DNA of 64,000 nucleotides, taken from positions 56,730,001-56,794,000 of the forward strand of contig NC_090331.1 of NCBI RefSeq assembly GCF_035084215.1, given 5' to 3'. The notes beneath the pieces were generated by a model. That model saw only the letters and a list, made by a program, of their open reading frames with translations. It made no database searches and was not told the origin of the DNA. Positions 12,401 through 60,400 of the stretch are shown piece after piece; the first letter of the stretch is position 1, and every line of letters starts with the position of its first letter. The DNA is from Heptranchias perlo (Eukaryota). The translations under genes and the position numbers were made by a program.

Positions 12401-15400
12401 GATGCTGTTAAGATATTATTTCTTGGCAATAAGGATAACTGTATCGTAACACATCCACATGTTTGCTTCCAGTGAGCAATGGCTGGAAAGTGCCTATTTT
12501 CAGTGCATGGTGAATATGCATATGCACCCAGAATCATAGGAATTCCCAAGTATGTGGCCATTTGACCAGTTGTGCTTGTGCTTCTGCCAGCTCCCCACAT
12601 CCCATGCATTACCACTGCATTCTTGGAAGAAGAAAGTACTGGCCAGAGCTGCCTCCATGTTTTACAAACTTAAGATGTTATGCTCCTACCCTCCAATTAT
12701 TTTGATTATATCATTAATAGTATTTTGAAATTTGCGCATAAAAATATGCAGACCACTTACCTATAGAGATCATTTAACAAGATGGAACAAAAATGGTTAC
12801 AGACCAAGATGCAGTTTTGGTACTATGAACAAACTATAAAAGTCTTTATGCACATGATGCATCTTCACTCTCCAAATTACATTTCAATTAATAATCTGTT
12901 ATTACAGCATCATCAGCTTAAGAACAATTTAACACTTGTACCATATTTACAAAACAAAAACAATACATAAGTTTATTTAGTATTGTGGCCAAAGGCACCT
13001 GGAATAAAACTTCAAAATGAGGAACTTTTGGCAGCATTTGAAACAAAGTGGTGATGGTACAGAGCACTGCAATGAACAGAGCTAGAATTAAATATTAATC
13101 TAAAATTTCTTTTCTACACAGTCTGAGATATGAAATACAGTTATTTCAGTATAAAACAGCAGTGGCTATCTAACTGCAAGAAGCAGTGATTTAAAATCAG
13201 AACCAGAATTTTACATTTTGTTTAATTTTTTTGTTTAAGAATTCGAAATTAAGATGCAACTTTCTCTTTTTTAAGAAAACTACCATGGCAAGCTCAGCAA
13301 GATGGGCTTGATCCGAGCAGTTACATGATCTGTGAGAACACATTTAAATCTTTGAACCCTGGGGTAGAACTTTTGACTCACAAAAAAAATACTATTGGCA
13401 GCTTGGGGCACTGCTAATGGTTAATCTAGCCATTGGCTAGTTGTTGTTCCAACCATCCAGTGTCAGCTATATGGCTCAGTGGACCTCCTCAGTCCCTTTC
13501 TGTACTTCAAGTTAAAGATTTCTAGGCAGCACTGATTAATCTTATTGCAGAAAGGGAACAAAGAAGTTGGAAAAGCCAAACAAAACATTATTAATAAGAG
13601 CATTTAGCATCCTTATATTGCTCACATAACAATGGCAATCCATTTCATATCTACCCCATACCTTGGATTGTTAGTTTGGCTTTGCAAGAGTCACTTCCAG
13701 CCTCATTTGTGGCTTTACATAGGTAATCACCGCTATCTGCTTTAGTAGCTGCTTTACTTTCTAGGGCAGCTGTACCATCCATGAAGCTTATGTTCAATTT
13801 TTCAGATGGTTTTATTTCTTTTCTGTCTTTAAACCATTGTATCTTAATTGGCTCAGATCCATGGAAATGACAACTAAGCTGCAAGATCTCTCCTTCGGTT
13901 ATTGTCATTGGTTTAAGTGGTATATCACAGACAGGAGGCTTTTTAAGCTCTAAAACAGCAAAAAAAAATAAATGTCAGTATTTAAAATGGAAAATCTGCC
14001 ATCATCAAACATCAGATCGAAGATTCTTTTAACTATTTATTTTACCCAGTCCATACCCCCTCCCCCTTTGAGGTTACCCGTTGCTGCATCCCATCATCAC
14101 ATTTCCTCTTTCATCCAGGAGAGTTTAGCAGTCTGTGCTGCATTGGACACTTCACATGTATGAACAGCAGAATCAGTAAGATGTGCTCTCTTAATGTTCA
14201 ACACTACTACATTATTTTTAAATGACATTTCATAATTTTCAGTTTGCAGGATCTCTTGTTCATCTTTGAACCAGTTTACAGACATTGGTTGTGAACCAGA
14301 AACACGAGCTTCAAGTTTTATAGATTTTCCTTATGTATCCTGCATTGTTTCAAGAGGTTTTTTAGTAAAGCTTGGTGGAATTTTACAATCTGTAACAGAC
14401 AGGTATAGCAACATGAGTTTAATATTACAAATACCCAAAAGATATAGATATATTTTTCATTTCTTCAGTGATGTTATGTTTCCACTAGAGAAATCCTTTA
14501 AAAAGTGCCTGGAGAAATGGGTGGTAGATGTCTAAAATGAAGAGCTGTTGATAAGGATTATAAAGAATTTCACCACCTTTGATGTTATTTTTCAGTTAAG
14601 ATTTGTTTTTAAATAATTGACTTTCCTAAATATTTTACTGGCAAAAGAAGAACTCCACACAGATAATATAACACAAACTGAACAAGTAACTAGAAAACAA
14701 TCATAATGAAGAAGCAAAACTAATAAGTAGCAAAACTAATAAGTAGCAACATTCTTCTTCCAAATGAATAAAGCTTCGCCTGGAATGCTGTACCAGAGGA
14801 AAAGAATAACTGACATTGAGCAATACCTTTTACAGTCACTTGTGTTTTGCAAGAGTCTTTTCCAATATCATTGCTGCCCTCACAGATGAACTGGCAAGAG
14901 TCTCCCTTGTCTGCTTTTAGAATTGTCAGGTGAGGTGTATTTTCCGCACAGGTTATCTTGTAATTGCCACTTGATCGGATCTCTTTGTCATCCTTCAGCC
15001 AAATGACTTTAATTGGGGGAGAGCCAATTAAATGGCATTCAAGTTCTACACTTTGCCCAGTGGTAACTTCCACTGGTTCTAGTTTTTTGTCAAATACAGG
15101 GGCAACTCTAGGCTCTAAAAATATAACAAGAAAGGATTATTTTCTGCTGTAATACTATCAATAGTAAAGTAATAGCATCTAGCAATGACATATAAAAGAA
15201 GCAGATATCAAAGTGTAAATATTACAGAATTAGGGTAAAAGATAATAAAGTCAAAAAGCTGAAGATAATAAGTGCATATTTAACCCAACAAACCTTTCAG
15301 AGTTAGTTTGGAATCACATGAAACATCTCCAACCATGTTGGAAGCTTTGCAAGTGTATTCACCAACATGATCCATCTCAATGTTAAGAATGTTAAGTGTT

Positions 15401-18400
15401 GCTTTGTTCTCTATGAAAGATATAATTAAGTTTTCTTCACTGACCAATTTCATCCCATCTTTAAACCAAGAAGTTTCAATGGGAGCTGAACCAGAAATAC
15501 AACACTCAAATGTCACTGGAAGACCAAGAGTTCCTTCCATATTCTTAATTTTTCTTGTGAAAGAAGGTGCAGATTTAAGTTCTGTAAAATAAAGAGTTAT
15601 GGAATGAGTTCATCAAAACTATGATTACACAGGAAATGATTTTTAACCACAACAAAAAGACTAAAATATCCTCACAACGAAATGTATGACATGCAGACAT
15701 ATATCAATCTGTTAAGCACAGACATTGATTAATCTGCCAAGCAATGTCACCTTGAACAGTAAGCATGGCCTTTGATGAACAGGCCCCTATTTCATTTGCA
15801 GCTTTGCATATATATTCCCCACTGTCGCTCATGGTTACTTTCTTCAGTTCCATTTTTGCAATGTTGTTCACAAACTCCATTTTGCAATTATGGGTGGCTC
15901 TCAGTTTTGTGTCTCCTTTGTACCAAGCCACTTTAATTTCAGGTGTTCCAGTGAGTGTACAGTCAAAAGATCCTGAGTCTCCTATTGTTATTTCCAGAGG
16001 CTCTAAATGTTGGACAATCGTTGGTGGTTCTAAGGTATAATCAATATATGTCAGCAATGAAAGAATATGCATGTATACACACACAAAAAGAAAGCAAAGA
16101 AACAGAATGTTGATGTAAAGTCAGTGACTGAAAGAAATCAAAAGTTAACAAACCTAATATTTTCACTTCAGCATGACAAGTGTCCCTTCCAGCATCATTT
16201 TCTACCTCACAATGGTATTTTGCACCATCGTCTCTAATACTGTTGAGAATTTCCAAAATACAAGATGTTTCAGTAGTAGTTATTAAATATTTTTCAGACT
16301 GGGATATTTCAAAACCATTCTTCTTCCAGATGACTTTGATTTCTGGGGTACCAGCGTATGTGCAGTCTAGACAAACTGACTTCCCCAGTACAACACTAGA
16401 ATCCTTCAATTTCTTCTGGAATACTGCTGGTTCTGATAAAGATACATATGAAAACAGTTGTCAAAAAAATCCTAACCACTCAAGCAAAATTTTAACTTAC
16501 ACAGATGTTCTGTTTTTTAATCTGTACTTTACAAACCTTTCACAGATAATTTTGTTGTACAGGAATCTTTGCCAGCTTCATTACTGACTTGGCAGATATA
16601 GTCTCCACTTTGGGAAGGTTCCACGTTTAGTAGCTCCAGTACTGCTGTTGAGTCACTTAAAGAAATTAGACATTTCCTTCCCATTACCAGTTCAGTGCTA
16701 CCTTTAAACCATTTCACTTTCAGTGGAACTGTTCCAGTAACAACGCTTAGAAATCTTGCTGTTGAACCAGGTAAAACTTCCTGAGGATCAGGTTTGCTCA
16801 CAAATGAGGGTGGTTCTAAAGGGGTCAAAGCAAAATGGTGTAATATAACATTAAGAACATAAGAACATAAGAAATAGGAGCGGGAGTAGGCCATATGGCC
16901 CCTCGAGCCTGCTCCGCTAGGAACATAGGAACAGGAGTAGGCCATTCAGCCCCTCGTGCCTGCTCCACCATTTGATAAGATCATGGCTGATCTGTGATCT
17001 AACTCCATATACCTGCCTTTGGCCCATATCCCTTAATACCTTTGGTTGCCAAAAAGCTATCTATCTCAGATTTAAATTTAGCAATTGAGCTAGTATCAAT
17101 TGCCGTTTGCGGAAGAGAGTTCCAAACTTCTACAACCCTTTGTGTGTAGAAATGTTTTCTAATCTCGCTCCTGAAAGGTCAGGCTCTAATTTTTAGACTG
17201 TGCCCCCTACTCCTAAAATCCCCACCAGCGGAAATAGTTTCTCTCTATCCACCCTATCTGTTCCCCTTAATATCTTATAAACTTCGATCAGATCACCCCT
17301 TAACCTTCTAAACTCTAGAGAATACAACCCCAATTTGTGTAATCTCTCCTTGTAACTTAACCGCTATTCAATAAGATCATGGCTGATCTTCGACCTCAAC
17401 TCCACTTTCCCGCCCTATCCCCATATCCCTTGATTCCCTTAGTGTCCAAAAATCTATCGATCTCAGTCTTGAATATACTCAATGACTGAGCATCCACAGC
17501 CCTCTGGAGTACAGAATTCCAAAGATTCACAACCTCTGAGTGAAGAAATTTCTCCTCCCCTCGACCCCTTGTCTTGAGACTATGATCCCTGGTTCCAGAC
17601 TCTCGAGCCAGGGAAAACAGCCTCTCAGCATCTATCCTATCAAGCCCTCTAAGAATTTTATTTGTTTCAATGAGATCACCTCTCATTATTCTAAACTCCA
17701 GAGAATATAGGCCCATTCTGTGCAATCTCTCCTCACAGGACAAGTCTCTCAGCCCAGGAATCAGTCTAGTGAACCTTTGTTGTACCCCCTCTAAGGCAAG
17801 TATATTCTTCCTTAGTAAGGCGACTAAAACTGTACATAGTACTCCAGGTGTGGTCTCACCAAAGCCCTATATAATTACAGCAAGACCTCCTTAATCTTAT
17901 ACTCCAATCCCCCTTGCAATAAAGGCTAACATACATTTGCCTTCCTAATTGCTTGCTGTACCTGCATCTTAACTTTAAGTTATAAATTTACTAGAGATTT
18001 AAATTTAAGACTAAAATACCTTAATTTTTTGCTCGAAATAAAAACAAAATCAGTTTTTCTCTTTTTTTCACAATTTTTACCCCTTTGTCACCTTCTTTCC
18101 TGACAGATAATCTGCAGATAATACCAGCCTTCCAGTACCTCACCCAAGTGGCCATTCTTAGTGTCTAAGTGTGGAAGGTCGGCATCAGCAGGCCATTTGA
18201 CCATGAAAATGATCATTGATGAGCCTGATTCTATCCTGATACAACACCCACATCTGTGCACTTTCAAGCTGGGGTCCCTTGAAAGTGACAGCAGGAATGC
18301 TGGTCGATATTTTCCCACTGCCTATCTGAGGACACGGAGGCCAATTGTAGTGCACCCGATCGCCGACTTACATCAAATTACATAAAATGTACAGCACAGA

Positions 18401-21400
18401 AACAGACCATCCGGCCTAACTGATCTGTGCTGGTGTTTATGCTCCATACAAGCCTCCTCCCACCCTACTTCATCTAACCCAATCAACATATTCTTCTGTT
18501 GCTTTCTCCCTCATGTGCTTATCTAGCTTCCTCTTAAATGCATCTTTGCTATTCGCCTCAACTACTCCTTATAGTATTGAGTTCCACATTCTAACCGCTC
18601 TCTGGGTAAAGAAGTTTCTCCTGAATTCCCTATTGGATTTATCAGTGACTATCTTATATTTATGGCCCCTAGTTCTGGTCGCCCTTGCAAGTAGAAACAT
18701 CTTTTCTATGTCTACCCTATCAAACCCTTTCATAATCTTAAAGACCTCTATCAGGTCACCCCTCAGTCTTTACTTTTCTAGAGAAAGGAGCTCCAGCCTG
18801 TTCAATCTTTTCAGAAAGGTACATCCTCTCAGTTCTGGTATCATCCTTGGAAATCTTTCTTGCAGACCTTTTTGCTATACAAGGCTCAGTGCCATGTCAC
18901 ATGGTAACATTTACACACTCGTAGACCAGTGGAGCACCAAACAAAAATCATTTGGAATACAGCAAATGATAAACATAATTTATATACAAAGAGAGTACAC
19001 AGGAGCAAGAAAAATACTGGTATCTTCATTAAGAAATAAACTGACCTTTCACAGTCAAGACACCACTGCATTCATCGCTTCCTGCAGCATTCGTTGCTTT
19101 ACATGTATAACTGCCGGCATCTGACATTGTCAATGTATTTACTTTCAAATCACATGTATTATCTCCAAATGCAAGATGATATTTTTCTCCGTGTACAATC
19201 TCCTGTCCATCTTTGAACCAAGACATAGTAATAGGTGGTGATCCTGACACCTTGCACTCCATTTGGATGGGAGAAGCCAAGATACCATCCATTTTCTTTA
19301 ACTTGCTTGTAAATGTTGGTGGAATAATTCGATCTGTTTAAGTTACACCAATAAACCATGATTATAAAGAGATTTGAAAAAAATATTTTAAAATCCTGAA
19401 GAAAACAGTATGAAGAAGAAAAAGCAGTAAACCAAACCTAGAACGCTGACTGATGCTTTGCAGCTGCTGCTACCGACATTATTCTGGACTTCGAAAGCAT
19501 ATTCACCACTGTCTGCCTGCACTGCAGACAGAATTTTTAGTCTGGCAATTTTGTTTAGAAAGCTGATCCTATATTTTATGCCAGATGCTAACTCTTGACC
19601 ATCTTTCAACCATTTCGCTTTTAGTTCTGGTGTACCTGTAACAATGCATTCCAAAGTTGCTGGATCTCCCGCAGTTACACTGATAGATTCTGCTTTTTCC
19701 ACTATTGTGGCAGGTTCTATAAGAAAAAAACCTCCATTTACAAAATATTCTTGATAAACACTGGCAAATAAAATAATAGTCTGTAATCCTCTCAAATATG
19801 AATTAAATTCTATAAACATCTAGTATATTGATATTAGGTTACTGACCCAGAACTACTACAGTAGCAGTGCATTCTTGCATTCCAGCATCATTTTTGATTT
19901 GGCAAGTATACTTTCCAGCATGAACTGGTTCTAATTTTGCAATATGTAAAGTAACAATGTTTTGTTCATAGGTAATAGTCATGTACTCATTATCTTTCAC
20001 TTCTTCCTTTTCCTTGATCCATGTTACATTAATTGGTTCTGAGCCTTTAATGGTAGATTGTAAAGTTACAGACTCTCCAGGCACAGAAGAAATGTCTGAA
20101 AGTTTCTTCACAAATGCTGGTGGCTCTGAAGAATTAAAGAAATATTCCTTTCATGTGAAACATAACCTTAAAGAAATGTTTTCCTAAAATTATAACAACA
20201 GTAAAATTTAAATGTACAATTTGGAAAATTTACCAACCTTTTAGATTTAAGGTGCCAATACAATTGTCACTTCCCACATCATTCTTGGCCATGCACATGT
20301 ATTCCCCTCTGTCTGGCGTCTCTACTTTAAGAATATGAAGACCTGCTACATGGTTTTCATAAGTAATTTTATACTTTTTACTTGCTCGGATTTGCCTTTT
20401 GTCTTTATACCAGGTAACTTCAAAAGGAGATGTACCACTGAATTCACACTGCAGTATGACATCAGAGCCTTTCAGTACATCAACTGCCTCAAGTGTTTTA
20501 CTGAAAATAGGAGGTTCTGTAAGAAGATCATAATTTGTCTCATTTATGCATTCATGAAGAAAAGATACTTGCTTTATAACTTTGACAGACTTTTATATAT
20601 GCATCTGAAAAAAGCTACCTACCTTTGACTGCAACAGCTACACTGCAACTGACACTGCCAGCTTCATTTTGAGCTTCACAAATGTAATCACCGCTATCTT
20701 CCAAATCAGCATCAATAATTTCAAGAACTGCTACAGAATTATCAAAATGCATTTTGTATTTGTTACCAGCACTAATTTCAGCATCATTCTTGAACCATGA
20801 AACCTTGATTTCAGGCGTGCCAATCACTTTGCACTCAAAATGTGCTGATTCACCCTTCTTCAGTACTTTGGATGGTTCCAGCTTCTGAATGAAAGATGGG
20901 AGCTCTGGGAAACCAAAATAGAGTACATTTAGTGCCAGGGTTACAGGAATGTTACATTTTGGAATAATTGGAATTGTGAAATATGTGGAAAGAAGTGGAC
21001 AAAGTAAAAATTGCATAAGAGAATGTTATAAATTCTTTTAAAAAGACAAATTATAAATCAATTATAATTTTTTTAATGTTATAGATAATAAAAAGCATAC
21101 AATAGAATTGTTGTAATGAAGAGTATAAGATGATAATATATCCTTGAGGCAATGAAGAGTATAAGAAACTAATATAGAATTGATGTGATAAAGAATATAA
21201 GATAACATACAATTGATGTCATGATGAACACAATATGTTAACATAGAACACAGATAAGAAAGAAGATTCGAATATACTGAGAATACTCAGCAACTTAAAG
21301 ACATTAACAACAAATAAAAGACAAACAAGATGCTGATAACATATACCAACACAACATAAAAAATGCACACCTGTCACAAACAATTTTGCTGTGCAAGTAT

Positions 21401-24400
21401 CTGTGCCAACATCATTGGTGACGTGGCAAGTATAGTATCCTGTATTAGAATGTTTTACTGAGTACAGTTGTACAAAACTGGATGAACCTTCCGTCACAAT
21501 GCAACATGTAGCATCAGAATTTAGTTCCTTGTCATCCTTAAACCATTTGAAAGACAGGGGAGGTGTTCCTTTCACATCACTCTTGAACTGTACTGCAGAA
21601 TAGGGGGGCACCTCCTGTGACAATGGTTTTACTATAAATCTTGGTGGTTCTAAAATTCATTGAAGAAAAAATATATTTGTCGCAATAAAGAGCACATATA
21701 AAAAGATTCATCAACTTTTGTGTTATAAACTACATAACTAATAAATTCAGAGTAATTATTTCAAACTTTCAAGAAATTCTGGCAAGGTTAAAATATGATA
21801 TGACTGACAAGTACCATGTTAAGAAATTGAGCAGAAACAGTAAGACAATATTTCAAACCTTTCACAGTTAGTGTGCCACTGCATTCATCACTTCCTGCTA
21901 CATTTGATACTCTGCAAGTATAAATTCCACCATCTGCGATTTCTAGTTGATTAATCTCCAAAGATGAAGCGTTATCTCGCTGTGATAGTTTATATTTGTT
22001 ACTATCTGATATCTCTTTCCCATCCTTATACCAATCAATGCTCATTGGAAGAGAAGCAGATACTTTGCACTCCATGGACATGAAAGACCCTAATACAGAG
22101 CCCGTATCCTTTAATTTTTTCGTAAATGTTGGAGCAACTAATCGATCTGTACAATACAGAGCACAACCTGTAAGCTTAAAGTGTAAAAGTAGCCTAAAAC
22201 ACCTGCTTTGTTTTCATGCTTTAACTGCAATCCTTTTCACATCCAAATCTCTCAATACATTTAAAATACTAACCTAATACTGTCAAGGAAGCTTTGCAGC
22301 TGTCGACTCCAAACTCATTCTGGACCTCAAAAGTATATTCACCACTACTCGCCTTCTCTACGGATAGAATCTTTAGACTGGCCATGTTTTTCTCAAAGGT
22401 CAATTTGCATTTTCTGCTGGATGTGAGCTCCTTTCCATCCTTAAACCATTTAACTTTTAGGTCTGGTGTACCAGCTACAGTACATTCCAAAATTGCTGGA
22501 TTTCCTACAGTTACACTGCATGATTTTATTTCCTCAACAATTTTTGCAGATTCTGTTAAGAAAAAATACTCTGCTGAGTAATGTTGTCAGTATGTTTAAT
22601 ATTTTAATGTGGCCTTCTTTTTCACATTAGTATGATAAACAAATATGAATTTGGCAGTAACTGACTTTTACATGTTAGTCAATCATGTTTCCTACCAACC
22701 TGTTACTATCAACGTAGCAAAACATTTCTCAATCCCTGCATCATTTTTGGCCTGACAGATGTATTTCCCACCATGTTTTTCTTCAACAGTTGTAATTTGT
22801 AGGATAGAAATATTGTTTTCAAAAGAAATTGCTGTGTTATCATCTTCTTTGATATCATCATTATCTTTCATCCAACTTATCGATAAAGGTTGTGAGCCTT
22901 TTACAAGGCATTGAAATATAGTAGAATTTCCAGCAATTGTTGTAACATTTTCAATCTTCCTTATAAATGATGGGGGTTCTGGTTCAAGGTAAATAGGCAT
23001 ACAAATAAATATGAGTAATTTGCTCTGTCCTCTTTAATGATTATAATAAAATGGCAATACATACTGTATTTGGAACTATTCCCTAAAATGTCAACATTAC
23101 ACGTTAGCTGCTAAAACTGTGCTATGTGATGAAGGTAAAAGTATTTTCTTATTACAATGTAACTAACCTTTTAAATTGACACCACAACTGCAGGAGCAGC
23201 TTCCCACATCATTTGTTACTATGCATTTATAGTCACCGACGTCTGAAACATCCAACTTCAAAATATGAAGACTAACTAAAGAGTTCTTAGTGAGCATCTT
23301 GTATTTTTCACTAGATGGAATTTGTTTATTGTCCTTATACCACATAACGTCAAAGGGACCTGTGCCAGCCATCTCACATTCAAGAGTGACACCACTGGCT
23401 TTTACTACCTCAGCAGATTGAAGTTTCCTTCTAAAACTGGGAGGTTCTATAAAGTAATCACAATAAAGAAATCCAAATCAACCAAAAAGCAGAAACTAAC
23501 AGTATCCCTCCTCAAGAAACTAACATATATATTTTGTTACCAAATTAAAGAAGACATTATTACAGACCTTTAACTTCAACTTCACTGCTGCAGCTGTCAC
23601 TACCAGCTTCATTCCGTGCTTCACAGATGTAGCATGAACTGTCATCCAAAATAACATCAATAATCTCAAGAACTGCCACGGAACTATCAAATGACATCAT
23701 ACACTTGTCACTGGCTATAATTTCATGGCCGTTTTTGTACCAAGTAACTCTGATTTCAGGTGTGCCAGTTACAATGCACTCAAAACGTGCTGAGACTCCT
23801 TTCTTTAGTATTGTTGAAGAATCTAGCTTTTTAATGAAGCTAGGAGGTTCTAGAAGCCAAAATATTACAAACTTCAATATACATTTAAAGGATAATCAAA
23901 AGCAATTCAAACTAATATTTAGATATAAATAATTGGCTACATAACATTTACAGACTAAATTTATAATTTTTTTAAAAACTTAGTTTAAAACTCAAATAGA
24001 GCTCTGTGTATGGTAAAGTAAACTGCATTTCCTTTTTCATATGCTATCGGGTTCCGTAATTGCTGCCTCCACCAAAATAGTTCTTCCTTCCATAGGAGGG
24101 GTGGGGCATTGTCGGCTGTGAAAGTCCTCAAAATTGACATCATTATAAGTTTACGATCAGATGATACCAATCAATTTTAGTGAGACTGTTGGTTTTGCCA
24201 ATTCTTCTTTGAATGGAGACAGAATTCTCCACCACTACATGATGCTCCACCAAGCAGTTAATGATAAATCATCGAGTCTAACTGTGAGACCAGACTTGAA
24301 TGCCAGACGATTATCACTGCCCCCTCTCCCTGGTTGGGAGTGTGAAGTTCTACCACTAGAGTTCACCAACCATCAAATAAACAAATTGTTGTTTCCAAAC

Positions 24401-48400: not shown

Positions 48401-51400
48401 ATTTTAAAATATCTTATGTCTGCATGCACTTCCTGTCAGTTTTTTACATTATAAATTCCTATGTCCATGTTTATAATGGAAACTGTCTTTGTTAATTTGT
48501 CACACTCTAATTACACCCTCCTGCCAATTAAGGGGGTGAAGCAACACCAATGCTGAGAGGGTGTAATTACAAAGTGACAAGTTTATGCAAGCAATTTCCA
48601 TTATAGATGTAAATATAGTAATTTCTATAATGGAAATATAAAAATAAGAGCAGAATGCATGACTTTAGAATTACATCTGTGTACACTGGTCCAAGTATCC
48701 CTCACCCTCTGACTCAGCTTCATCTGAAGACAACACTTGGTCTTAACTACCCATGTGCAATGTCATGGAACATTGATTAGTTATTATGGCCCTAAAATTC
48801 CACGGGGTTCAATCAGTCTCCTATCGTAATTCCTGTGGGAGACCAGCGGAACTCCATGGAAATGGTGCAAATGGCCGTTTTCAACTGTTTACACCATTTT
48901 GCTGGGGTTCTGCTAGTCTCCAGTCATGTGTTCAGTAGGTAACAGATGGAACCCCTGTGGAATTTCAGGGGTTAATAACTACTGGATCTTCCACAGGGAC
49001 TGACCACCAGGTACACTCAGCTTGTTCCTGACTACTGAAGTTGTGCTCACATTAGAAGAAAATAGCACCAAAGAAGAATATGGCTTTATCCTGCCACTTT
49101 CTCAAAACCAAAATAAAGATTACATCATCAAATTTAATCTTTAAAAAAAAATTAGCTAGGGCTATATTTTACAAATAATTAATTGTTAATTGTTCTGTTT
49201 GCATTGAATTCAGTGGACAAAAAATAGGTGTAAGCAATATTGTTGCAGATGATTTCTTATAATGTGATCCTATTAGGGGAGCAAATGAAAACTGGCCAAT
49301 CACATCGCACCTGTAATAATGTTCTTTTCACACTTCTCAAGTAGCTAAATTGTCATTTAATGATGAGTATTTCATTCATCCATTGTTGGAGAATGCAGAA
49401 ACTTTTCCAAAATGGTTCAAAGAAGGTTAAAGAAAGACCATTTCCCTGGTTAGTACATGAAGATCATGTTTGAAAAACACAATGAACTCTTTTGGGCTGG
49501 AAAGATTGAGGGGTTGCTAACAAAACTACATTAGAGACAAAGAACTTGACAGTTTATGAACTGCTACATGAACTCAAGATCAACCATTGTGAGGACCATG
49601 GAGCAAGCCTGGAAAAATTATCATAACTTAAAAAGGAGCACAAAGAGCTCAAAATAGGTGATACATCTATGAGTTGTTAAAGATATCGATGAACAAAAAC
49701 AGTATTCTCACAGACAAATGAATGAAATGCCACATATGAATTTGGATTCTTTTAACGTGATAATGGATGTATATGGGCAAGAATTTAAAAACCAGAGTTA
49801 TTAAACACAAAAAGTGTTGCACTAACTCAGAGAAACGGTAAGAAGGATATAGCAAGGAAGGCGACTGCAAATTACATTACGCTCACCAGGGTGGCAGAGA
49901 GAATGTACTGTTGGAAGGGATTTACATGGTTCAAATTACCCTGCCTAAATTCACATTGTTCTCATATTTAATAGGTAAAGTTGAAAAATACAGAAAGGAC
50001 CAAATAGATGGTAGTCCCTCACAGCAACAGTATTTTGCCGATGAAAAGAAAATGATCAAATTGATAGGAAGGGAGGCTCTCACTGTGACTGGTCCTCTGG
50101 AACTTGCAGGGCAGCAAGGACCACTTGGGATACAGCATAATAATGGAGGGCGCTAGTGACCTTTACTGTCCCTGCAGCACAACATGGGCAAAACAGCACA
50201 CCTGAGTCACACCCTTCCTACTTGGCCAGGGCAATTCATGCATTGCTTCTAGTGAGGTACAGGTAGCTGCATCTATTGTGGTAGACCTGGAGTTGTATGT
50301 TCTGTGAATGATACATCTTCTTTGTTCATGATATAAGAACATAAGAACATAAGAAGTAGGAGCAGGAGTAGGCCAATCGGCCCCTTGAGCCTGCTCCGCC
50401 ATTCAATAAGATCATGGCTGATCTGATCCTAACCTCAAATCTAAATTCATGTCCAATTTCCTGCCCTAACTTGAGTTAACCAGCAATGTTGGGGAATTAA
50501 AAGTTTGGTATTTACTTCTGTCAGTATTGTGAAAATTAGAAATCTTGCCATTTCTTTTTACAACTAATTCATGGATCTGATACTAAACTTAATTTTCATG
50601 TTTATCTTGCTCTGCATAAATTTCTCAAGACTGGTTTTAACAAGACCTGAATACTCCATAGCAAGCTAATTTGTGCTCCCCCATAGTCATCATTTTGCAT
50701 GGGAGTAATACTCATGGTAGTTGTAAAAATAGAAAGAAATCTGTGACTGCTTTCTACTGGTCTTGCTCACGCTTATGCCTGTCTACTTCCTTCTAAAACT
50801 ATCACTAGTTATTAAATTGTTCACCTATTGCTCTTCCCACCATTTTCCAGTGATGCCTCTCCCTTTCTCACCAATGCTAATCTCAGTCCATCCTTTCCGC
50901 TTGTAGATCTCTTCATTTAAGTTCTCCCACTCTCTTATGATCTGTTTTGATATTTCACCTACACTTCAGAATATTTTTCACTGTTTTTCTCTCCAGGTGC
51001 CTGCTTCTTAGTCACTGTATCCTTAGGATTCTTGCTGATCCTGTAGCCTTTTACTTCTCCATTTCAATTCTTTTCTACCCACCTTCCCTTTCACTGGGTG
51101 TACTGTATCCTGGCCTACCACATTGTATTTTTTCCACAGCACAATCTAGCATCTCAACAGAAAAGCATAATACTTACATTCAGTATCATATCTGAATTAT
51201 GCCGCCATACTATCCACTACTGCAACAGTAAATATGCTTCATGATGCTCATTTGTAATATTCCATCTCAAAGCTACACATATAGATAAGATAGTTACCTA
51301 ACATAAACCACATAATCCAGTCACCTCTTGGGATTATGGTTCATGCAGACTGATATCACCCAGGGATTTTTTTTAGTAAAGCACTGCCCACTGCTATCTT

Positions 51401-54400
51401 TCCTAACAGGAGTCTCAATATTTTGTCTTTGAGGAGCACTTACACGAAAGCCACATATAAAGTTTAAATTAATTTTGGATCTATGCCAAGCTACTAGCAA
51501 GCTAACAGATCAGGGTATTCAAATCTAGGATTTATCCACCAATAAGGGAGTAGCAATGAGAAACTTTTCTAAACCTCAAGACCTGTGGAATTCAAACAGG
51601 AGGAACCAGCTAAATAAGAAAAATAAGCATAAATAGAATATTTCCCCAGATCTCACAAAGCTGCATATAGCTCACGTGGCTTAGTTTGGCCACCTCAGTT
51701 CAAATATATATTTAAACCAAATAAATAATTAAAAACCTGAACAAGAATCATTGTGGCCTACTGTCACATCATGATATAAAAACCCAAACCATTGGAAACA
51801 AAAAAAAATTACACGTTTCATTGCTCTGAGAAAAATAAGACAAAGAAATTAGTATTAATGTTGAAGGTAGATTCAGATTGATCATAAATTGAAATGAATA
51901 AAAATAAAGACATAATATATAAACTACAGAAACTGAAAGAAAGCTATAAGGGAAAAGGAGCTATCAAATAAAGATTTACAATGTTATTAAGAAACATAGT
52001 AAAATAAAACTCTGTGTACAATGTTATGTAGAAACATTATTAAGAAAATCCACACCTTTGACAAAAAGATTTGCAGCACACGATTCTGTGCCAACTTCGT
52101 TGCTGACTTGACAAGTGTAGTCACCCGTATCAGAGACTTTTGCTGAATGCAGTTGTACCAAACTTGTTGAGCCTTCTTTTGAAATGTAACATGAATTACT
52201 AGGCATCAACTCCTTACTGTCCTTGAACCATTTTATAGTCATTGGAGGTGTCCCACTCATAACACTCCTAAACTGTACTTTGGAACCAGGCACAACATCC
52301 TGGGACAAAGGTCGCACAGTAAAATACGGAGGCTCTAAAATTGCCAGAGGAAAATTGCAGTCATTATGGCAAGAACATAAAAGAAAAATAAATACAGTAC
52401 TTTTCTTTCAAAAGGTAAGCCAAAATAAGTGAGTACAAGAATATGTAAGTATAATGTACGGTATTCGCAGTATGTTTGTTAATGTAGCAAACCAAGAAGG
52501 ATAACAAGTAATGCTTGTGATGACTAAAAAGAAGATATTACCATAACTAGTTAACTCTTGTAAGCAATTAAGAGGTTGATAACAACATTTCAAACCTTTC
52601 ACAGTTAAGACACTGCTGCTCTGGTCAGTTCCAGCAGCATTTGTTGCTCTACAAGTGTAAGCTCCACCATCTGTCATCTCTAGTTGATGAATCTCCAACT
52701 GCGCCATGTTATCATGATAAGAAAATTTATATTTTTCATTTGCTGTTATCTCTTCATCGTTCTTATACCAGAGCACACTCATTGGAAGAGAACCAGTGAT
52801 CTTGCATTCCATCTTAATAAAAGAAGCTTTGACGCCATCCACATTTTTTAATTTTCTTTTAAATGACGGTGGAACTATGCGATCTGTCCAACACATAGTA
52901 GGAAAGCAAAGGCTATAATTTCTTTCAAAATAATCGCTGAACTATGTTGCTGTTTCTTTTAAATATGGCAGTAAATGCAATGAAATGGAAGAGTTAGAAT
53001 ACCAACCCAATACTGTAATAGAAGCTTTGCAGCTGCTGCTACCAACATCATTCTCGACCTCACAAGTAAATTCACCACTGTCCTCCTTCTCGGTAGACAG
53101 AAGCTTTAAACTTGTAAGCTTATTTGTAAGACTGATTTTATATTTTCTACCAGTCATCAGCTCTGTGCCATTCTTAAACCATCTGGCTTTAATTTCTGGT
53201 GTTCCTGTAAAACTGCAGTCCAGTGTTGCTGGCTCTCCTGCAGTTACACTAATAGAGTCTGCTTGCTCTATAATATTTGCTGGTTCTGTGACAAAAAAAG
53301 AATATTAGAACATAAGAATATAAGAAATAAGAAACGGCCATTTTGGCCCACCTAATTCGCTTTCCCTGAGCCAAGCTATTGATACATATTTCCACAACCT
53401 CTATTTGTAAAACTATACCATTCATTTGTGCCTTAGCCTGCCTTTCTCAAGTTCTGGAAAATTCTGCCTGTGCAACCGTTTAATTTCTCATTTAAAAAAG
53501 ACTCATCCAATTCCTTTTTATTTAATTAAAAAAATGTATTAACTGCATGCATTGCCAATTTTACAATTTTACACCTGTGTGCATTAAGCATCCATGCCTA
53601 AATTCTTTCAGAGTTATTCTTTCTTTTGGTCACAGTTCTAATACCTGTTTCAACTTAACATCAATTTAATCAGTTATTCTCATGATTCTAAAATATTGTA
53701 GTACTATATTCTTCTTCTATTTTCTCTATTCTAAGGAGAATTGGCCCAGAAATTGCTGGAGCGACACATCTCGCACCGAGCCACATGAATTCGATTTTTT
53801 TCCTCACCCTTCAGATCGTATTATTTTTGCACCACAAATTACTGAAAATGCGAATTGATAATGGCGCGGTGATGTCAACGTGGCAACTGGGACCTCCTGA
53901 ACGTCGGGTCCAATGGTCTATCTCCTTAACTAAATAAATTTAAATATAGAGAAAGAAACAGAGCGAATGACAGAGAAGGAAATAGGGTGAATTATAGTCA
54001 AATTCGATATAGAAAGAGAAATAAAGAGAGGGAAAGAAAGATTGTATTAAAGAGGAAAAAGAGTCAGTAAAGATAAATAAGAAAAAATGTTGAATTTAAA
54101 AAACCTCTGGTTGTTCCCTTTCTAAGAACATAAGAACATAAGAAATAGGAGCAGGAGTAGGCCATACAGCCCCTCGAGCCTGCTGCGCCATTCAATAAGA
54201 TCATGGCTGATCTTCTACCTCAACTCCACTTTCCCGCCTATCCCCTGGGCCTCCAGGGTTGAGTTTCATGTCAGGTCGATAAATCACGTCATTAAAAGGG
54301 TCCTTATGACATGAGATACCAGCCTTAAATGTCTGCAGCGAGATTCATTCATATTTACGGTGCAAATCCAGCAATTTCTTGACACTCATGGGGAGGTTGA

Positions 54401-57400
54401 TGGTGAGCTCCCATTTTTGCCAGGCTAATGGCGGAACAGTACAAATCGTCCAGCAATATGTGGTGATTCGCAACTCATGGCATATCTCTTCCTCGACACA
54501 GATTGTTGGGCTTTTTACGCAAGAATAATGGTGGATGTGTGAACTCGCCATTATTTTTCCAGCAATTTCTAGGCCAATAAAAATATTTTAGACTTTCTTT
54601 ATGGTCTAACCATTCCAGCAAGTACTGGGTATTATTTGTTTCATCTGCTTTAAAACAGCCATTATGAAATTAAAATAACTTAAAACATTTAGAGCAGTTC
54701 CATTTTAAAAATAAGTGAAGTTGTAACACACACGTTAATAATTTTTAGACCAACCTTTCACTACCAAGTTTGCAATACACTTTGTGATTCCTGCGTCATT
54801 CTTTGCCTGACAAAGGAACTTCCCACCATGATGTTTCTCAACAGAACCAATTTGCAGTGTAGCTCTATCCTTCTCAAAAAATATTTTAATGTTATCATCT
54901 TCGGTGATATCATCTTTATCTTTTTGCCAGGTTATAGAAATAGGGCTTGAACCTTTCACAGTGCTTTGAAACATAGCAGGAGCTCCCAAAAGCACAGTAA
55001 TATTTTCAATCTTCTCAACAAATGATGGAGATTCTGTTTTAAAATGAAATATTATGAATAAAGAATTTCTCTGAATATTCATTACAAACTCACCTGATAA
55101 TTAGTGTAAAACAAAATTAATTTATAATGTAATATAATGGAACAGAAACACTTGCTAAGTCTTTACTAACCTTTCAAAGTGACTGCAGAACTGCAGAAAC
55201 AACTTCCCACTTCATTTGATACCTTGCATTGATATTCACCGACATCTAAGGTATCAAATGTAAGAATATGTAAACTAACTAAAGAGTTTTGACAGACCGT
55301 CTTGCGTTTTTTGCTAGGCCTAATTTGCTTATTGTCCTTATACCATGAAACTTCATATGGGGCTGTACCAGCCATTTCACACTCAAGAATGATGTCAGAG
55401 GCTTTGAGCACCTCAAGAGATTCAAGTTCTTTTCTGAAAGATGGAGGTTCTAAAATGAAGAAACAACAAATTCAATCTAAAACATGCTCTTTATCACTTA
55501 GATCCAAAAATTTGCAGCTGCAGGTATCTTGTAAATGCAGCCTAAATTCGTAAAATTAGAAGTAAGATATCTTCACAGACCTTTAACTGTTACAGTAATA
55601 CTGCAACTCTCACTACCAACTTCATTCTGAGCTTCACAACTGTATTCTCCACTGTCTTCCACATCACCATCAAGAATTTCAAGAACTGGCACACAATTAA
55701 CAAATGACATTCTGTATTTGTCACTGGGATGAATTTGCTTGTCTTTCCTATACCAGGTAACTTTAATTTCAGGTGTGCCAGTCACTTCACATTCAAACCG
55801 AGCTGAATCACCCCTTTTCAGTAATGTTGATGACTCTAGTTTCCGGAGAAACACTGGTGGTTCTATAAAAATCAAGATGTCATAAAGAATATATTTAAAA
55901 GATATTCATAAAGGAAGACAAAGAAGATGAAAACATCCACGCCACTTCACAGAGAAGATAACTATAGCCCCTCCTATTAATAAAAGTATACTTTACAATG
56001 TTAGAGACATTTTAATAGAAAGAACATAAAAAGTGATAAGAATATTGAATAACACTAAAGAGAATATATATAAAAAAGAATCACCTTTTACAAAAAGGTT
56101 TGTTGTACAGGAAATTGTCCCAGAATCGTTGCTGATTTCGCAAGTGTAGTCACCCATGTCAGACGGTTTCACTGAAAAAAGCTCAAGAAAAGTTGCAGAA
56201 ATGTCCTTCTTAATGAAACAGGTGCCACCAGTCACAAGCTCTGTGTTACCCTTGAACCATTTCATTGACATTGGAGGTGTGCCATTCACAACAGTCTTAA
56301 ACTTCACCGTTGAACCCGGTAGAACTTGCTTTGATGCAGGCTTTGTTATAAAGCTCGGAGGCTCTAAAAGACATTCAGAAAAAAAACATATGAATTATGC
56401 ATAATGAATAAATATATGGAGCAAGTAAGCTTTCTCCTTATTTTCTTTCTTCCATTCCTATATGCAGTGATTTACCCTAGGGTACAGTTTCATGGCTCTA
56501 GCAGTCCACTGGTACCTCAGCTAACTGAGATCAGGTAACTCAACACATTCTAGCAATTAACTCTGGGACATTCCAGGGATTCCCCTGATGGCTCAGCAAG
56601 TTTATCTGGCAAGTGGCTAACTAATACAGACCAGCAACATACAAGGTTCAATTGCTAATATGTGCTGAGTTAGCTGATCTTAGCCAGGGCAGCTGTTGTT
56701 CCACTACAATTGGTCTGAGCATCATGGTTCGAGAGAGAAAAATTAAACATAGTTCCCATTCCCAATCTCTGGCTAGAAGTATGTGCATATGGACATTGAG
56801 CAAAGACAGGATCCGGCTTTGCAGAGATGACCGCTGCAGTTAAATATCCCACCGACATTCTCCATCAAGCCTCACATATGAGTGGAATGAAGCTTTGGTA
56901 AGGAATCAACAACTTCAAGAGAGGAAGATAGCAAAGAAAAAATGGCCAAAAAAGGCCTGGGAAGATGCTGATCCATACGATTTAATACTATACACTTATT
57001 GCATTTATATATCGAGTCATCGGAGAGTAAATGGAAAACAAATGCATTAAAAAGTTGGCCAAACTTGAACACACTTACCAATGAAGAATATGCTTTACAT
57101 GAAAATAAAATGGGTTTGCAAAAGGTCTGGATTGAAAATTGAAACAGCAAAAGAAAAGATATAATTGCAGAAGCAGAATGAAATTAATTGTTGAAACCTT
57201 TTACACTTAAGACTCCACTGCATTCATCAGTTCCTGCAGGATTAGTAGTTTTGCAGGAGTAGGTTCCACCATCTGCAATCTCTAGTTGATTAATCTCCAA
57301 AGCAGCTGTGTTGTCTTGACATGATATTGTGTACTTTTCATTAGCTGATAACTTTTTGTCATCCTTATACCAAGAAATCCTGATTGGGATAGAACCAGAG

Positions 57401-60400
57401 AATTTGCATTCCATGTGAAAGGAAGCACCCAAGATGCTGGTCATTTTCCGTAGTTTTTTGGTGAAGGATGGAGCAATCATACGATCTGCCCAAGACAGAG
57501 TAACAAATCAATGAGATTACTGGAACTAAATTAAAAGCATGCTTTGAATTACAATAAGCAAAGGAAATATAAAAATGAAATTAGATAATTCTATACTAAC
57601 CCAGTACAGTAATAGAGGTTTTGCAACTGCAACTGCCCACATCATTTTTGATCTCAAAAGAGTATTCACCACTATCCTCCTTTTCTGCAGAAAAAATCTT
57701 TAAGCTGGCGACCTTATCTGAAAGAGTTGTTTTACATCCTCTACTGGATATTAGCTCCTTGCCATTCTTGAACCATTTAGCTTTTAGTTCTGGTGTACCA
57801 GCTATTATGAATTCCAAAGTTGCTGGGTCCCCTGCAGTCACACTAATTGGCTCTGCTTTCTCAAGGATATTTGCAGGTTCTGTGGCAAAATGAAATGGTT
57901 ACTATTAACAAAACTTAGTAATGTAAAGCAGCGTCATTTCATAAAATATGAGATTTGCATAAAATGAGCCAATACATTCTCAAACTAACCTTTCACAATC
58001 AGCGACGCCAGACATCTTTGACTTCCTGCTTCATTTTCTGCCTGACAAATGTATCTCCCACTGTTGTTCATTTCAACAGCAGCAATTTGAAGAGTACCAA
58101 TATTGTTCTCAAAAGTCATTTTGATATTATCACTCTCTGTGACAACATTTTTATCTTTCAGCCAAGTTAAAGTGATAGGAAGTGAGCCTTTTATGCTGCA
58201 TTGAAACACAGCTGAGCTTCCCAAAAGTGCAGTAGTATTTTCAAGCTTCTTCACAAATGATGGTGGCTCTAAATTAAAATGAACATACAGATGACAGAGT
58301 ATGTATTTTATGGTCCATCTATTAAATGATCTTTGTCAAATTTTTAACATCTATTTATGAAAGTAGGTTATGAATATATTTCTCTCACTTTCTAAAAACA
58401 TCACTAACCTTTCATCTTCACTGTTGCACCACAGAAACATTTTCCTACTTCATTAGAAACTGTGCATTGATAATCACCGACATCTGAGAACTCAAAGAAG
58501 CTAATATGGAGATAAGCACGAGCGTTTTGGAAGATCACCTTGAACTTCTTACTACTTCTTATCTGCTTTCTGTCTTTTTGCCAGATAACTTCAAATGGAG
58601 TTGTACCAGACAATTCACATTCAAGAGTGCAATTGAATCCTTTTACTACTTCAGTAGGTTCAAAAGCTTTGATAAAAGAGGGAGGCTCTACAAAGGAACA
58701 CATAAAAATCTCAGACTAAAATTCAATTTCAAACTGTCATTTTTTTCCAAAAATGTTAAAGACGGCAACAAAGATGGTGCCTAATATGAAACCAAAGTCA
58801 ACATCGTACAGACCTTTGATTGTAATGACAGAGCTGCAGCTATCAGTACCAGCTTCATTCTGTGCTTCACACACATAATCCCCACTATCCTCTACATTTG
58901 TATCATTAATCTCAAGGACAGCTGTAGAATCAATAAATGATATCTTGTATTTTTCTGAGGAATTGAGAATCTTATTGTTCTTGTACCAGGTAACACTGAT
59001 TTCAGGTGACCCTTTCACTTGGCACTTCAAGTGTGCTGGATCACCTTGTTTCAACAGCAATGATGGTTCTAGCTTCTTAAGGAACGAAGGTGGCTCTGAA
59101 GAAAGGTTTGAAGAAACATTTTAAGAGACGTCAAAGAAAGGGCATTTACAAAAAGAGAACTGTGATAACGCAAAGACAATTTTTAAAGAAAAGATGTAAC
59201 ACAAAGTATTGCAATCGACAAATGAGAAAATGTTAAATTCTTAAGCTTAGCAATTTTTTTCAACAACAAATCAAAAAGGCAAAGAAAAAATAACATCTAT
59301 TTTTATGCACATATATATAGCTAAATAAAATTGTTAAATTGAAGGCAGATATAAAGCAGCAATTGAATTGGTGGGACTCTGATAACATTTTAGGTCACGT
59401 GGGCTTTGTTTTCATAATTTATGTGATCAACAGAACCCTTGATTTAATAACTGCTTTGTATCTTGCTTCCAGACATTTACTTTTTTTATATGTAATGATT
59501 TTCTATTGTAAAGTTCAATTAAATAAAAAGAGGTAAGCAAAGGATAAGAGAAACACAAAGAACCTGTTTGTCTATCACCTTCAGAATGAGACCAAAATCT
59601 TTATGTACGTTATGTAAATAACTGAATCCAAATGAAAAGAATTATGTCACAATCCTAATCGCACAATAATTTTACAGTCAGCTTGAATGTATTGAAAGAG
59701 CAGCTGACTAATTCAGGTATAGATTCCACTAATTCACATTGCTAACTTGTCCTTTTTACTCAACATCTCTCATTATACTATGGGGCAGATATTTAATCAA
59801 GGTCAATAGAATCATAGAAAATTTATGGCACTGAAGGAGGCCATTCAGCCAATCATGTCCGCGCCAGCCGAAAATGAGCAACCCAGCCTAATCCCACTTT
59901 CCGGCAATTGGTCCTTAGCCTTGTAGGTCACGGCACTTCAAGTGGATATCCAAGCACTTTTTAAATGTGATGAGGGTTTCTGCCTCTACCACCCTTTCAG
60001 GCAGTGAGTTCCAGACCCCCACCACCCTCTGTGTGAAAATTCTTTCCTCAACTCCCCTCAAATCCTTCTACCAATCACTTTAAATCTATGCCCCCTGGTT
60101 ATTGACCTCTCTGCCAAGGGAAATAGGTCCTTCCTATCCACTTCATCTAGGCCCTTTATAATTTTGTACACCTCAATTAAATCACCCCTCAGCCTCCTCC
60201 GTTCCAAAGTAAACAACCCCAGCCTATCCAATCTTTCCTCATAGCTAAAATTCTCCAGTCCTGGCAACATCCTCGTAAATCTCTTCTGTACTCTCTCTAG
60301 TGCAATTACATCCTTCCTGTAACGTGGTGACCAGAACTGTTTGCGGAACTCAAGCTGTGGCTTAACTAGTGTCTTATACAGTTCTATCATAACCTCCTTG

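Follow-up and report, generated by a model that had tools for sequence, protein, structure and literature searches.

According to PMC12241362, the human middle-Ig segment of titin contains 53 domains in super-repeats of two sizes, three of 6-Ig and three of 10-Ig (3x6+3x10), zebrafish connectin-a and the inferred gnathostome ancestor have 3x6+1x10, and the elephant shark (Callorhinchus milii) has 6x6+1x10. The whale shark (Rhincodon typus) segment consists of super-repeats, eight of 6-Ig and one of 10-Ig, and, with three N-terminal and two C-terminal domains beside them, comprises 63 domains (w27-w89; PMC12241362). For the duplication of 6-Ig blocks, the same paper proposes a transposon route without a test, and none of the words 'conversion', 'crossing', 'recombination', 'pseudo' and 'concerted' occurs in its main text. 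Human TTN and NEB carry segmental duplications with recurrent copy-number change, as described in PMC9142044, and the human PEVK triplication is cited in PMC12241362 as 1-3 million years old.

Architecture of the Heptranchias perlo middle-Ig segment

The window, a stretch of 64,000 nucleotides of Heptranchias perlo DNA, contains the titin middle-Ig segment on the minus strand, to which all exon coordinates below refer. The segment is an ordinary elasmobranch middle tandem-Ig spring of the 8x6+1x10 type published for the whale shark. It encodes 63 Ig domains from I27-like to I79-like (3+54+4+1 broken+1), 62 of which are intact. The I27-like exon (63112-63390, 279 nt) has AG/GT ends and an open frame and is followed by a 564-nt exon (61557-62120) that encodes the I28/I29-like pair and is the exception to one Ig per exon. 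From 59095 downward, the exon lengths 282/279/279/279/288/279 recur in nine exact cycles. Cycle 1 (56085-59095) is built from exons 58814-59095, 58409-58687, 57990-58268, 57601-57879, 57198-57485 and 56085-56363, and is followed by cycles 2 (52056-55862), 3 (40720-46003), 4 (37537-40509), 5 (33206-37259), 6 (28864-32582), 7 (24473-28586) and 8 (21371-23849). Cycle 9 and four extra exons of 279, 279, 288 and 288 nt (16154-16432, 15751-16029, 15294-15581 and 14827-15114) form the 10-Ig super-repeat (14827-20904). The 288-nt I79-like exon (13662-13949) is present in both the exon table and an RNA contig. All 60 tabulated single-Ig exons have AG/GT ends, an open frame and a length that is a multiple of 3, each phase-symmetric exon encoding one Ig. 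Slots are lettered A, F, E, D, C and B in transcript order, so that c4F denotes slot F of cycle 4. The labels I27, I28, I29, I78 and I79 are putative and are assigned by position, on the numbering of PMC12241362.

Amino-acid identity between domains averages 31-34% when they lie one to five places apart in the chain (lags 1-5), and reaches 57% at lag 6 and 65% at lag 12. Five of the six slots form starred clades (96-100/86-100) in a 60-domain tree that omits I28, I29 and the broken exon; slot A takes two changes, solely owing to x7, an extra domain on a long branch that falls inside it. All groups together need 7 changes compared with a shuffled mean of 40.9, and none of 200 shuffles was as low. 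The four extra domains of the 10-Ig unit find their best matches in x7-x10-like domains of other vertebrates. The 6-Ig/10-Ig scheme of PMC12241362 thus fits the segment, with domains clustering by slot and a 10-Ig unit of six slots plus four distinct domains. An earlier note on this DNA had described nine six-length cycles followed by four different Ig types and 63 domains including the broken one, and had named slot clustering as a check; the exon table, a recount and the tree bear it out in each respect.

By count, H. perlo matches the whale shark in its super-repeats and its 63 domains, but the exon of its penultimate domain is dead and skipped. The elephant shark has the same slots, with c7B-c8B orthologues 74-79% identical. 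The translations of two primers from PMC12241362, i60 and i64, correspond to Callorhinchus domains that match c8A and c8C; therefore, cycle 8 of the window corresponds to the elephant shark's sixth cycle (e60-65; 74-78% to Callorhinchus P0003). By the count in PMC12241362, the elephant shark is without the second copy of a 12-exon block described below. The human and elephant-shark states that the earlier note had given agree with PMC12241362, as does its remark that removal of 12 exons yields the elephant-shark state. Compared with zebrafish connectin-a and the gnathostome ancestor, the H. perlo genome has five more cycles.

Window domains were compared with proteins of up to 2000 aa (17, 96 and 66 matches) and the best 150 representatives, among which there was no full-length chondrichthyan titin, and the chondrichthyan data consist of fragments from five named species. 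A match above 70% was found in 8 of the 302 proteins compared (2 H. perlo, 4 Mobula, 1 Mustelus and 1 Callorhinchus). Titin-like fragments of Mobula and Mustelus are 71-89% identical to window domains and those of Callorhinchus 74-79%; Mobula birostris P0023 matches c2C and c2B at 80-81% and cycle 3 at 74-89%. RefSeq XP_067843002.1 is 100% identical on c4E and c4D, and XP_067843000.1 ('titin-like', H. perlo) on c6E, c6D and c7A. RefSeq splits the H. perlo stretch into separate 'titin-like' and 'CAVP-target protein-like' models. Domain c4D carries a Trp-to-Cys change in the C strand.

A duplication joint in exon c6F

Twelve exons, c4F to c6A, are present twice. The upstream copy starts at c4F (39857-40135), includes cycle 5 and ends with c6A; the downstream copy runs from c6F onward and includes cycle 7. 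The F-slot exon c6F (31901-32179) is chimeric and contains the duplication joint. At its 54 informative sites, the first 8 match c8F and, of the 46 that follow, 40 match c4F; a pattern this extreme occurred in 0 of 2000 permutations, and the switch lies between 32146 and 32136. Because c8F is still matched at 6 of the 46 sites to the right of the switch, later conversion appears to blur the joint. The 5' intron of c6F is identical to that of c8 and the 3' intron is 90% like that of c4; at 121 and 202 nt, both introns are short, and no repeat is found at the switch point inside c6F. The position of the joint within c6F points to unequal crossover and not to the transposon of PMC12241362. The F exons of cycles 4-8 have perfect runs of 45-52 nt in common, compared with at most 32 nt in other slots, and these runs are a plausible recombination seed.

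Divergence mosaic between the two copies

The two copies form a mosaic of near-identical tracts and diverged patches. Tract A (32150-35788, paired with 23417-27056) contains 10 mismatches in 3639 positions and tract B (36800-38550, paired with 28127-29877) 8 in 1751, so that long tracts differ by 0.3-0.5%; identical runs reach 912 bp. Divergence is 9-21% in the patches and in the repeat-free c4F-c4E intron. Intronic patch 1 (36050-36745, paired with 27320-28055) has 145 mismatches in 676 positions (21.4%), intronic patch 2 (38600-38860, paired with 29930-30140), a high-copy repeat, has 32 in 208, and a third diverged stretch has 18 in 187. The dispersion of mismatches is 27.3 versus at most 2.2 in 2000 shuffles. 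CpG decay was rejected as the cause of the patches, as patch 1 is still 15.4% diverged without CpG transitions. The downstream copy alone carries a high-copy insertion of about 750 bp (30545-31295), flanked by a short target-site duplication. The two diverged patches derive from repeats, and ectopic exchange with other repeat copies may have changed them. Several introns carry high-copy repeats that are LINE-like by their ORFs.

Copies in rays and other relatives

In the ray Mobula hypostoma, a D-C-B-A run occurs in each of two proteins whose accessions are consecutive and whose longest-contig size is the same. These copies are identical at 300 of 372 positions, a distance equal to that between ray and shark (79-81%; 294-300/372), whereas the H. 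perlo copies, with 369 of 372 identical, are closer to each other than to between-species orthologues. Identity between the ray copies over six domain pairs is 92, 71, 80, 87, 86 and 69%, where two of the pairs compare two Mobula species and the upstream/downstream order follows from neighbours and accession order; the H. perlo copies are 97-100% alike over the same pairs. Eleven single-copy domains are 74-89% identical between ray and shark. The Mobula data are protein fragments that cover exons other than the junction exon.

In a D-C-B-A tree, copies cluster within species (window 98/97, starred; ray 92/90, not starred), and a single clade of upstream copies is rejected (p-AU 1.7e-6). The clustering of the ray copies is also expected under independent duplications. 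Mustelus and Mobula group together to the exclusion of the window (99/97, starred; shark clade p-AU 0.008); this was discarded as proof of a duplication before the split, since ultraconserved elements yield the same topology as a species tree (bioRxiv 10.64898/2026.02.13.705779).

Contigs of a relative, organism B, differ from the window by 9-10% over the block (120/1386 and 88/892), less than the patches differ between the window's own copies. Their depth is 33-34 over the block and 15-21 on five single-copy pieces; a near-identical pair of copies has probably collapsed in these contigs as well, contig depth being a hint only. In contig set X1, from the likely source sample, collapsed block contigs have a depth of 19-23 versus 13.5-17, which is not a clean twofold difference.

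The 8x6+1x10 state looks elasmobranch-wide. The earlier note's proposal of independent lengthening in this lineage is not supported, as the whale shark also has 8x6+1x10 and Mobula proteins contain two copies of the duplicated domains. The contrary case that it had named, 8x6 as the general chondrichthyan state, largely holds for elasmobranchs and does not extend to holocephalans.

Origin of the duplicated block

The combination of tracts differing by 0.3-0.5%, patches differing by 15-21% and ray copies 69-92% alike argues for an old duplication homogenised by conversion. The block probably doubled before sharks and rays parted, by a crossover between F exons, and was later homogenised by conversion or unequal exchange within the published 8x6+1x10 spring. 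The doubling would postdate the chimaera split and predate the parting of hexanchiform sharks from rays, which is put at about 250-290 Ma (bioRxiv 10.64898/2026.02.13.705779). A crossover between misaligned chromatids would have joined the F exons of cycles lying 12 exons from each other. Two complete 6-Ig units would thereby have been doubled, both register and reading frame being kept, and no transposon would be needed. Overwriting of the copies by gene conversion or repeated unequal exchange would have gone on since then, to a strong degree in hexanchiforms and in patches in rays, but would have left untouched the edge beside the joint and the intronic repeat insertions. The fuller version has about even chances: a single doubling in the shark-ray ancestor by F-exon crossover, with about 99.6% identity kept for some 250 million years by conversion in hexanchiforms, drift in rays and possible copy-number variation, within a cartilaginous-fish cassette of 30 exons whose removal by splicing can restore the ancestral 3x6+1x10 spring.

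Independent duplications, with a recent one in the Heptranchias line and older, separate ones in rays and the whale shark, are unlikely but the most credible of the other readings. F-exon homology would make the event recurrent, as is copy-number change in human TTN and NEB (PMC9142044); the copies cluster within species (98/97, starred, and 92/90), and the exons and most introns are near identical (99.6%). A recent event is hard to reconcile with 9-21% divergence in the patches and the repeat-free c4F-c4E intron, which is too high even without CpG changes; organism B seems to own a near-identical pair, and the same block would need to double at least twice. An assembly artefact with two haplotypes in tandem, or a heterozygous copy-number variant with a 6x6 or mixed species state, is improbable. 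Single-copy allelic differences of 3/3277 and 3/3663 are far from the 9-21% patches and the 750-bp insert, an X1 contig matches the junction-side intron at 31800-31829, and the whale shark and Mobula also have the extra copy, although the X1 depth ratio over the block is only about 1.2-1.7, copy-specific X1 contigs have a depth near 10 and none of the contigs listed spans the crossover point. Least credible, and very improbable, is the route that PMC12241362 suggests for 6-Ig blocks, duplication driven by a transposon. LINE-like high-copy repeats do occur in several introns and the route has been put forward in print, but the switch lies within a coding exon free of repeats at that point, and the short introns around c6F follow the two parent loci.

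Under the favoured ancient doubling, the block resembles the human TTN PEVK-exon duplication and the NEB triplicate region as a highly identical multi-exon block in a giant sarcomeric gene that would be open to unequal exchange and copy-number change (PMC9142044). It differs in consisting of 12 Ig exons in two copies and, compared with the PEVK triplication, in an apparent age of hundreds of millions of years. Crossover that stays in register inside homologous exons offers a testable answer to why titin grows by whole six-domain blocks. This mechanism matters more than the architecture, which is already published for the whale shark and extends the 2025 result by one species; a literature search, with subscription journals and figures outside its scope, gave PMC12241362 as the only prior description of 8x6+1x10. 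The joint in a chimeric exon, the old conversion-homogenised duplication, the dead I78-like exon and the relative's short-form RNA were not found in print. Near-identical titin repeats are undatable by identity and mislead domain trees and assemblies.

Dead I78-like exon and RNA contigs

The I78-like exon (14130-14389) is dead and is skipped in RNA. It contains a TAA at codon 19, its 3' end is replaced, and no donor is found where a 285-, 288- or 291-nt exon would end. RNA contig X5 record 12 joins 14827 straight to 13949. DNA contig X1 record 1 covers the exon, with three differing letters, all listed outside it, and a relative retains the I78-like exon. The exon represents a natural loss of the I78-like domain that is tolerated through in-frame skipping.

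Sets X5 and X11 are presumed to be RNA, as their exon-to-exon contigs support, and both contain exons of the 10-Ig super-repeat. The added cycles are minor in the two RNA contig sets examined, and the main RNA contig of a relative, organism C, fits 3x6+1x10 by length. It appears that splicing treats cycles 4-8 as an optional cassette. One Ig domain contributes about 4-5 nm of chain length, so 12 domains contribute roughly 50 nm, and the extra domains would lengthen the chain only in isoforms that include them. The lengthened spring of the earlier note stands as genomic capacity only, given the minor share of the added cycles in those RNA contigs. In X5, depth over cycle 8 and the upstream cycles is near zero (0-7 in bins free of repeats); this was discounted, as no contig joins across.

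Architecture of the middle-Ig segment

The minus strand of the window encodes part of titin (connectin); most introns between its Ig exons are short, and some are large and filled with repeats. The Ig exons belong to the titin/connectin middle-Ig segment. Two Heptranchias perlo RefSeq proteins are 100% identical to its domains, one to c4E and c4D and the other to c6E, c6D and c7A (cycle number in transcript order, followed by the slot; A, F, E, D, C and B in each cycle), so that the source is this sevengill shark or a species that cannot be told apart from it. All 60 tabulated single-Ig exons have AG/GT ends and an open frame. The exon lengths cycle nine times through 282/279/279/279/288/279, followed by 279, 279, 288 and 288 and then 288. 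Adding an I27-like exon, a 564-nt exon that encodes two domains and a broken exon brings the total to 63 domains, of which 62 are intact; human I-numbers are assigned by position. Five of the six slots are recovered as starred clades in a 60-domain tree, and the slot A clade is disrupted solely by the long-branched x7, the first of four domains (x7–x10) that extend cycle 9 into a 10-Ig super-repeat. The length series, exon count and slot tree thus confirm the 8×(6-Ig) + 1×(10-Ig) arrangement, the total of 63 and the clustering by slot proposed in the earlier note. An Ig remnant was sought by tblastn in the 6052-bp c2B–c3A intron (46004–52055), and none was found.

In its available text, Hanashima et al. 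2025 (PMC12241362) describes 3×6 + 3×10 in human, 3×6 + 1×10 in zebrafish, 6×6 + 1×10 in elephant shark and 8×6 + 1×10 in whale shark (w27–w89, 63 domains), and concludes that the segment lengthened in cartilaginous fishes by 6-Ig blocks, independently of mammals. The earlier note is therefore a correct rediscovery of a published result, and the 8×6 state, which it attributes to independent lengthening in this lineage, is not special to it. The note's derivation of the elephant-shark state by removal of 12 exons is sound, as the primers labeled i60 and i64 in PMC12241362 translate into domains of the Callorhinchus fragment P0003 that match c8A and c8C. Neighboring domains are at most 47% identical, below the ∼70% co-aggregation limit for adjacent domains cited in PMC12241362, and the near-identical copies lie 12 positions apart. 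To the published picture the present analysis adds a mechanism that is plausible and a minor loss specific to the lineage; no description of a chimeric joint, copy homogenization or I78 loss was found in the literature searched, and the passages of PMC12198301 that were consulted contain nothing further on shark repeats.

A chimeric exon at the joint of a 12-exon duplication

Exons c4F–c6A are repeated ∼8.7 kb downstream as c6F–c8A. The exon at the joint, c6F (31901–32179), is chimeric. The first 8 of 54 informative sites match c8F, and 40 of the 46 following sites match c4F (0 of 2000 permutations as extreme); two additional sites match neither parent. On its upstream side, c6F has the same intron sequence as c8F; on its downstream side, the intron resembles that of c4F at 90% and that of c8F at 49%. 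This pattern, from which the event is inferred, is the expected product of an unequal crossover between same-slot exons 12 apart, which, at the F slot, would double whole cycles in frame. The F exons of cycles 4–8 share perfect runs of 45–52 nt, compared with at most 32 in other slots. PMC12241362 suggests transposons for the 6-Ig block gain without a test, and its main text, as available, lacks the terms "conversion", "crossing", "recombination" and "concerted". The shark block would work like the segmental duplications of human TTN and NEB described in the consulted portion of PMC9142044.

The F exons examined start at 39857, 35510, 31901, 26778 and 23168. c4F and c5F differ at 25 of 279 nt, whereas most F pairs differ at 65–114 and, in the remaining slots, the pairs formed between cycles 4 and 5 at 63–85. 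Judged from sequence, this low divergence is attributable to putative extra conversion between neighboring cycles at the F slot.

Age and probable homogenization of the copies

The two copies combine near-identical long tracts (10/3639 and 8/1751 positions differ) with diverged intronic patches (145/676 and 32/208) and a repeat-free edge intron (18/187). Without CpG transitions, 15.4 and 13.5% divergence is left in the patches and 8.6% in the edge intron. The mismatches are clumped (dispersion of 27.3 versus ≤2.2 in 2000 shuffles), and one copy alone carries a 750-bp repeat, which has a target-site duplication. In Mobula hypostoma, the D-C-B-A run occurs in each of two proteins whose accessions are consecutive; these are identical at 300 of 372 residues, compared with 294–300 between ray and shark and 369 between the shark copies. 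Over six pairs, two of which pair two Mobula species, ray copies are 69–92% alike, compared with 97–100% in Heptranchias. Plain orthology of the upstream copies is rejected (p-AU 1.7e-6). In contigs of a relative, organism B, the block is 9–10% different from the window at a depth of 33–34 versus 15–21 for single-copy sequence, roughly twofold, although depth does not equal copy number; this hints at a pair of near-identical copies in organism B as well.

The best reading of these comparisons is that the duplication is old rather than recent: a single event before the shark–ray split would have been followed by concerted evolution of both copies. The available part of a preprint (bioRxiv 10.64898/2026.02.13.705779) places the Hexanchiformes split at 278–288 Ma and that of other elasmobranchs at 256 Ma. 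Against one old duplication, the ray copies also cluster with each other (92/90), the joint is known from the Heptranchias window alone, the diverged patches are repeat-derived, and depth over the block in X1, a DNA contig set from the likely source sample, is 19–23 versus 13.5–17. X1 possibly carries a heterozygous copy-number variant of the block, consistent with a depth of ∼1.2–1.7 times single-copy over 22700–40135 and copy-specific contigs near depth 10.

Heptranchias falls outside Mustelus + Mobula in a titin tree of c5D–c6A units (99/97*). This grouping speaks neither for nor against an old duplication, because the preprint, in its available part, recovers it as a species tree; there, the disputed topology comes from ultraconserved elements, not from exons.

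Splicing and spring length

The added cycles contribute length only to isoforms that include them, and the longer spring claimed in the earlier note is limited accordingly. The main contig of a second relative, organism C (depth 75.5, 11789 nt), runs past c9A into a non-c8 cycle, with 65 differences to c8 at the F exon, and covers neither c8B nor c7F. The contig is as long as three cycles plus I27–29 (11759) with 30 letters more, the overlap expected for 31-mer contigs. By elimination, in this one run, the three cycles would be cycles 1–3, a zebrafish-like 3×6 + 1×10 form. In a minor contig (depth 8), c7B runs on into c8A. In elephant shark, skeletal muscle skips only i36–41 and heart skips i28–i69 (PMC12241362, available text), so inclusion of middle-Ig domains is tissue-dependent.

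Loss of the I78-like exon

The broken exon is I78-like, starts at 14389 on the minus strand and loses Ig likeness near 14130; it has a stop at codon 19 and no donor at the expected place. X1 record 1 spans 13600–16876 with three differing letters (14485, 15806 and 16002) and agrees across the dead exon, so the lesions are present in reads. In record 12 of X5, a contig set of the same sample taken as RNA, 14827–15114 is joined directly to 13662–13949 (record positions 2507 and 2506), and the exon is thus skipped in frame. Record 9 of organism C has 289 letters between the flanking exons, and its bin depth of 22.6 is the value predicted if the exon is covered, which indicates that this relative retains it.

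Core substitutions, introns and annotation

Both c4D (38969–39247) and c6D (30247–30525) carry Cys where Ig cores typically have a C-strand Trp. The Mobula birostris orthologue (P0122 residues 59–150) also has Cys at this position; the change is therefore old and conserved, and it may weaken the domain or permit a different disulfide. Core substitutions, Trp to Ser and Cys to Phe, occur in Mustelus P0022 (D and the last F domain) and Mobula P0002 (C domain), a hint of relaxed constraint on added cycles in other elasmobranchs.

RefSeq splits the titin stretch into separate genes (XP_067843002.1, XP_067843000.1 and XP_072118274.1), with pieces named 'CAVP-target protein-like', 'titin-like' and 'peroxidasin homolog'; this splitting is a mis-annotation. 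Decayed LINE-like elements with reverse transcriptase and endonuclease fragments occupy titin introns at 8400–12030, 16900–19100, 41800–44100 and 59800–60950, and the segments 42383–43400 and 59805–60845 are inverted and 88.5% identical. Downstream, exons at 3574–5806 encode an Ig domain, unique sequence and three more Ig domains, which we take to resemble the N2A element, the first Ig being I80-like.
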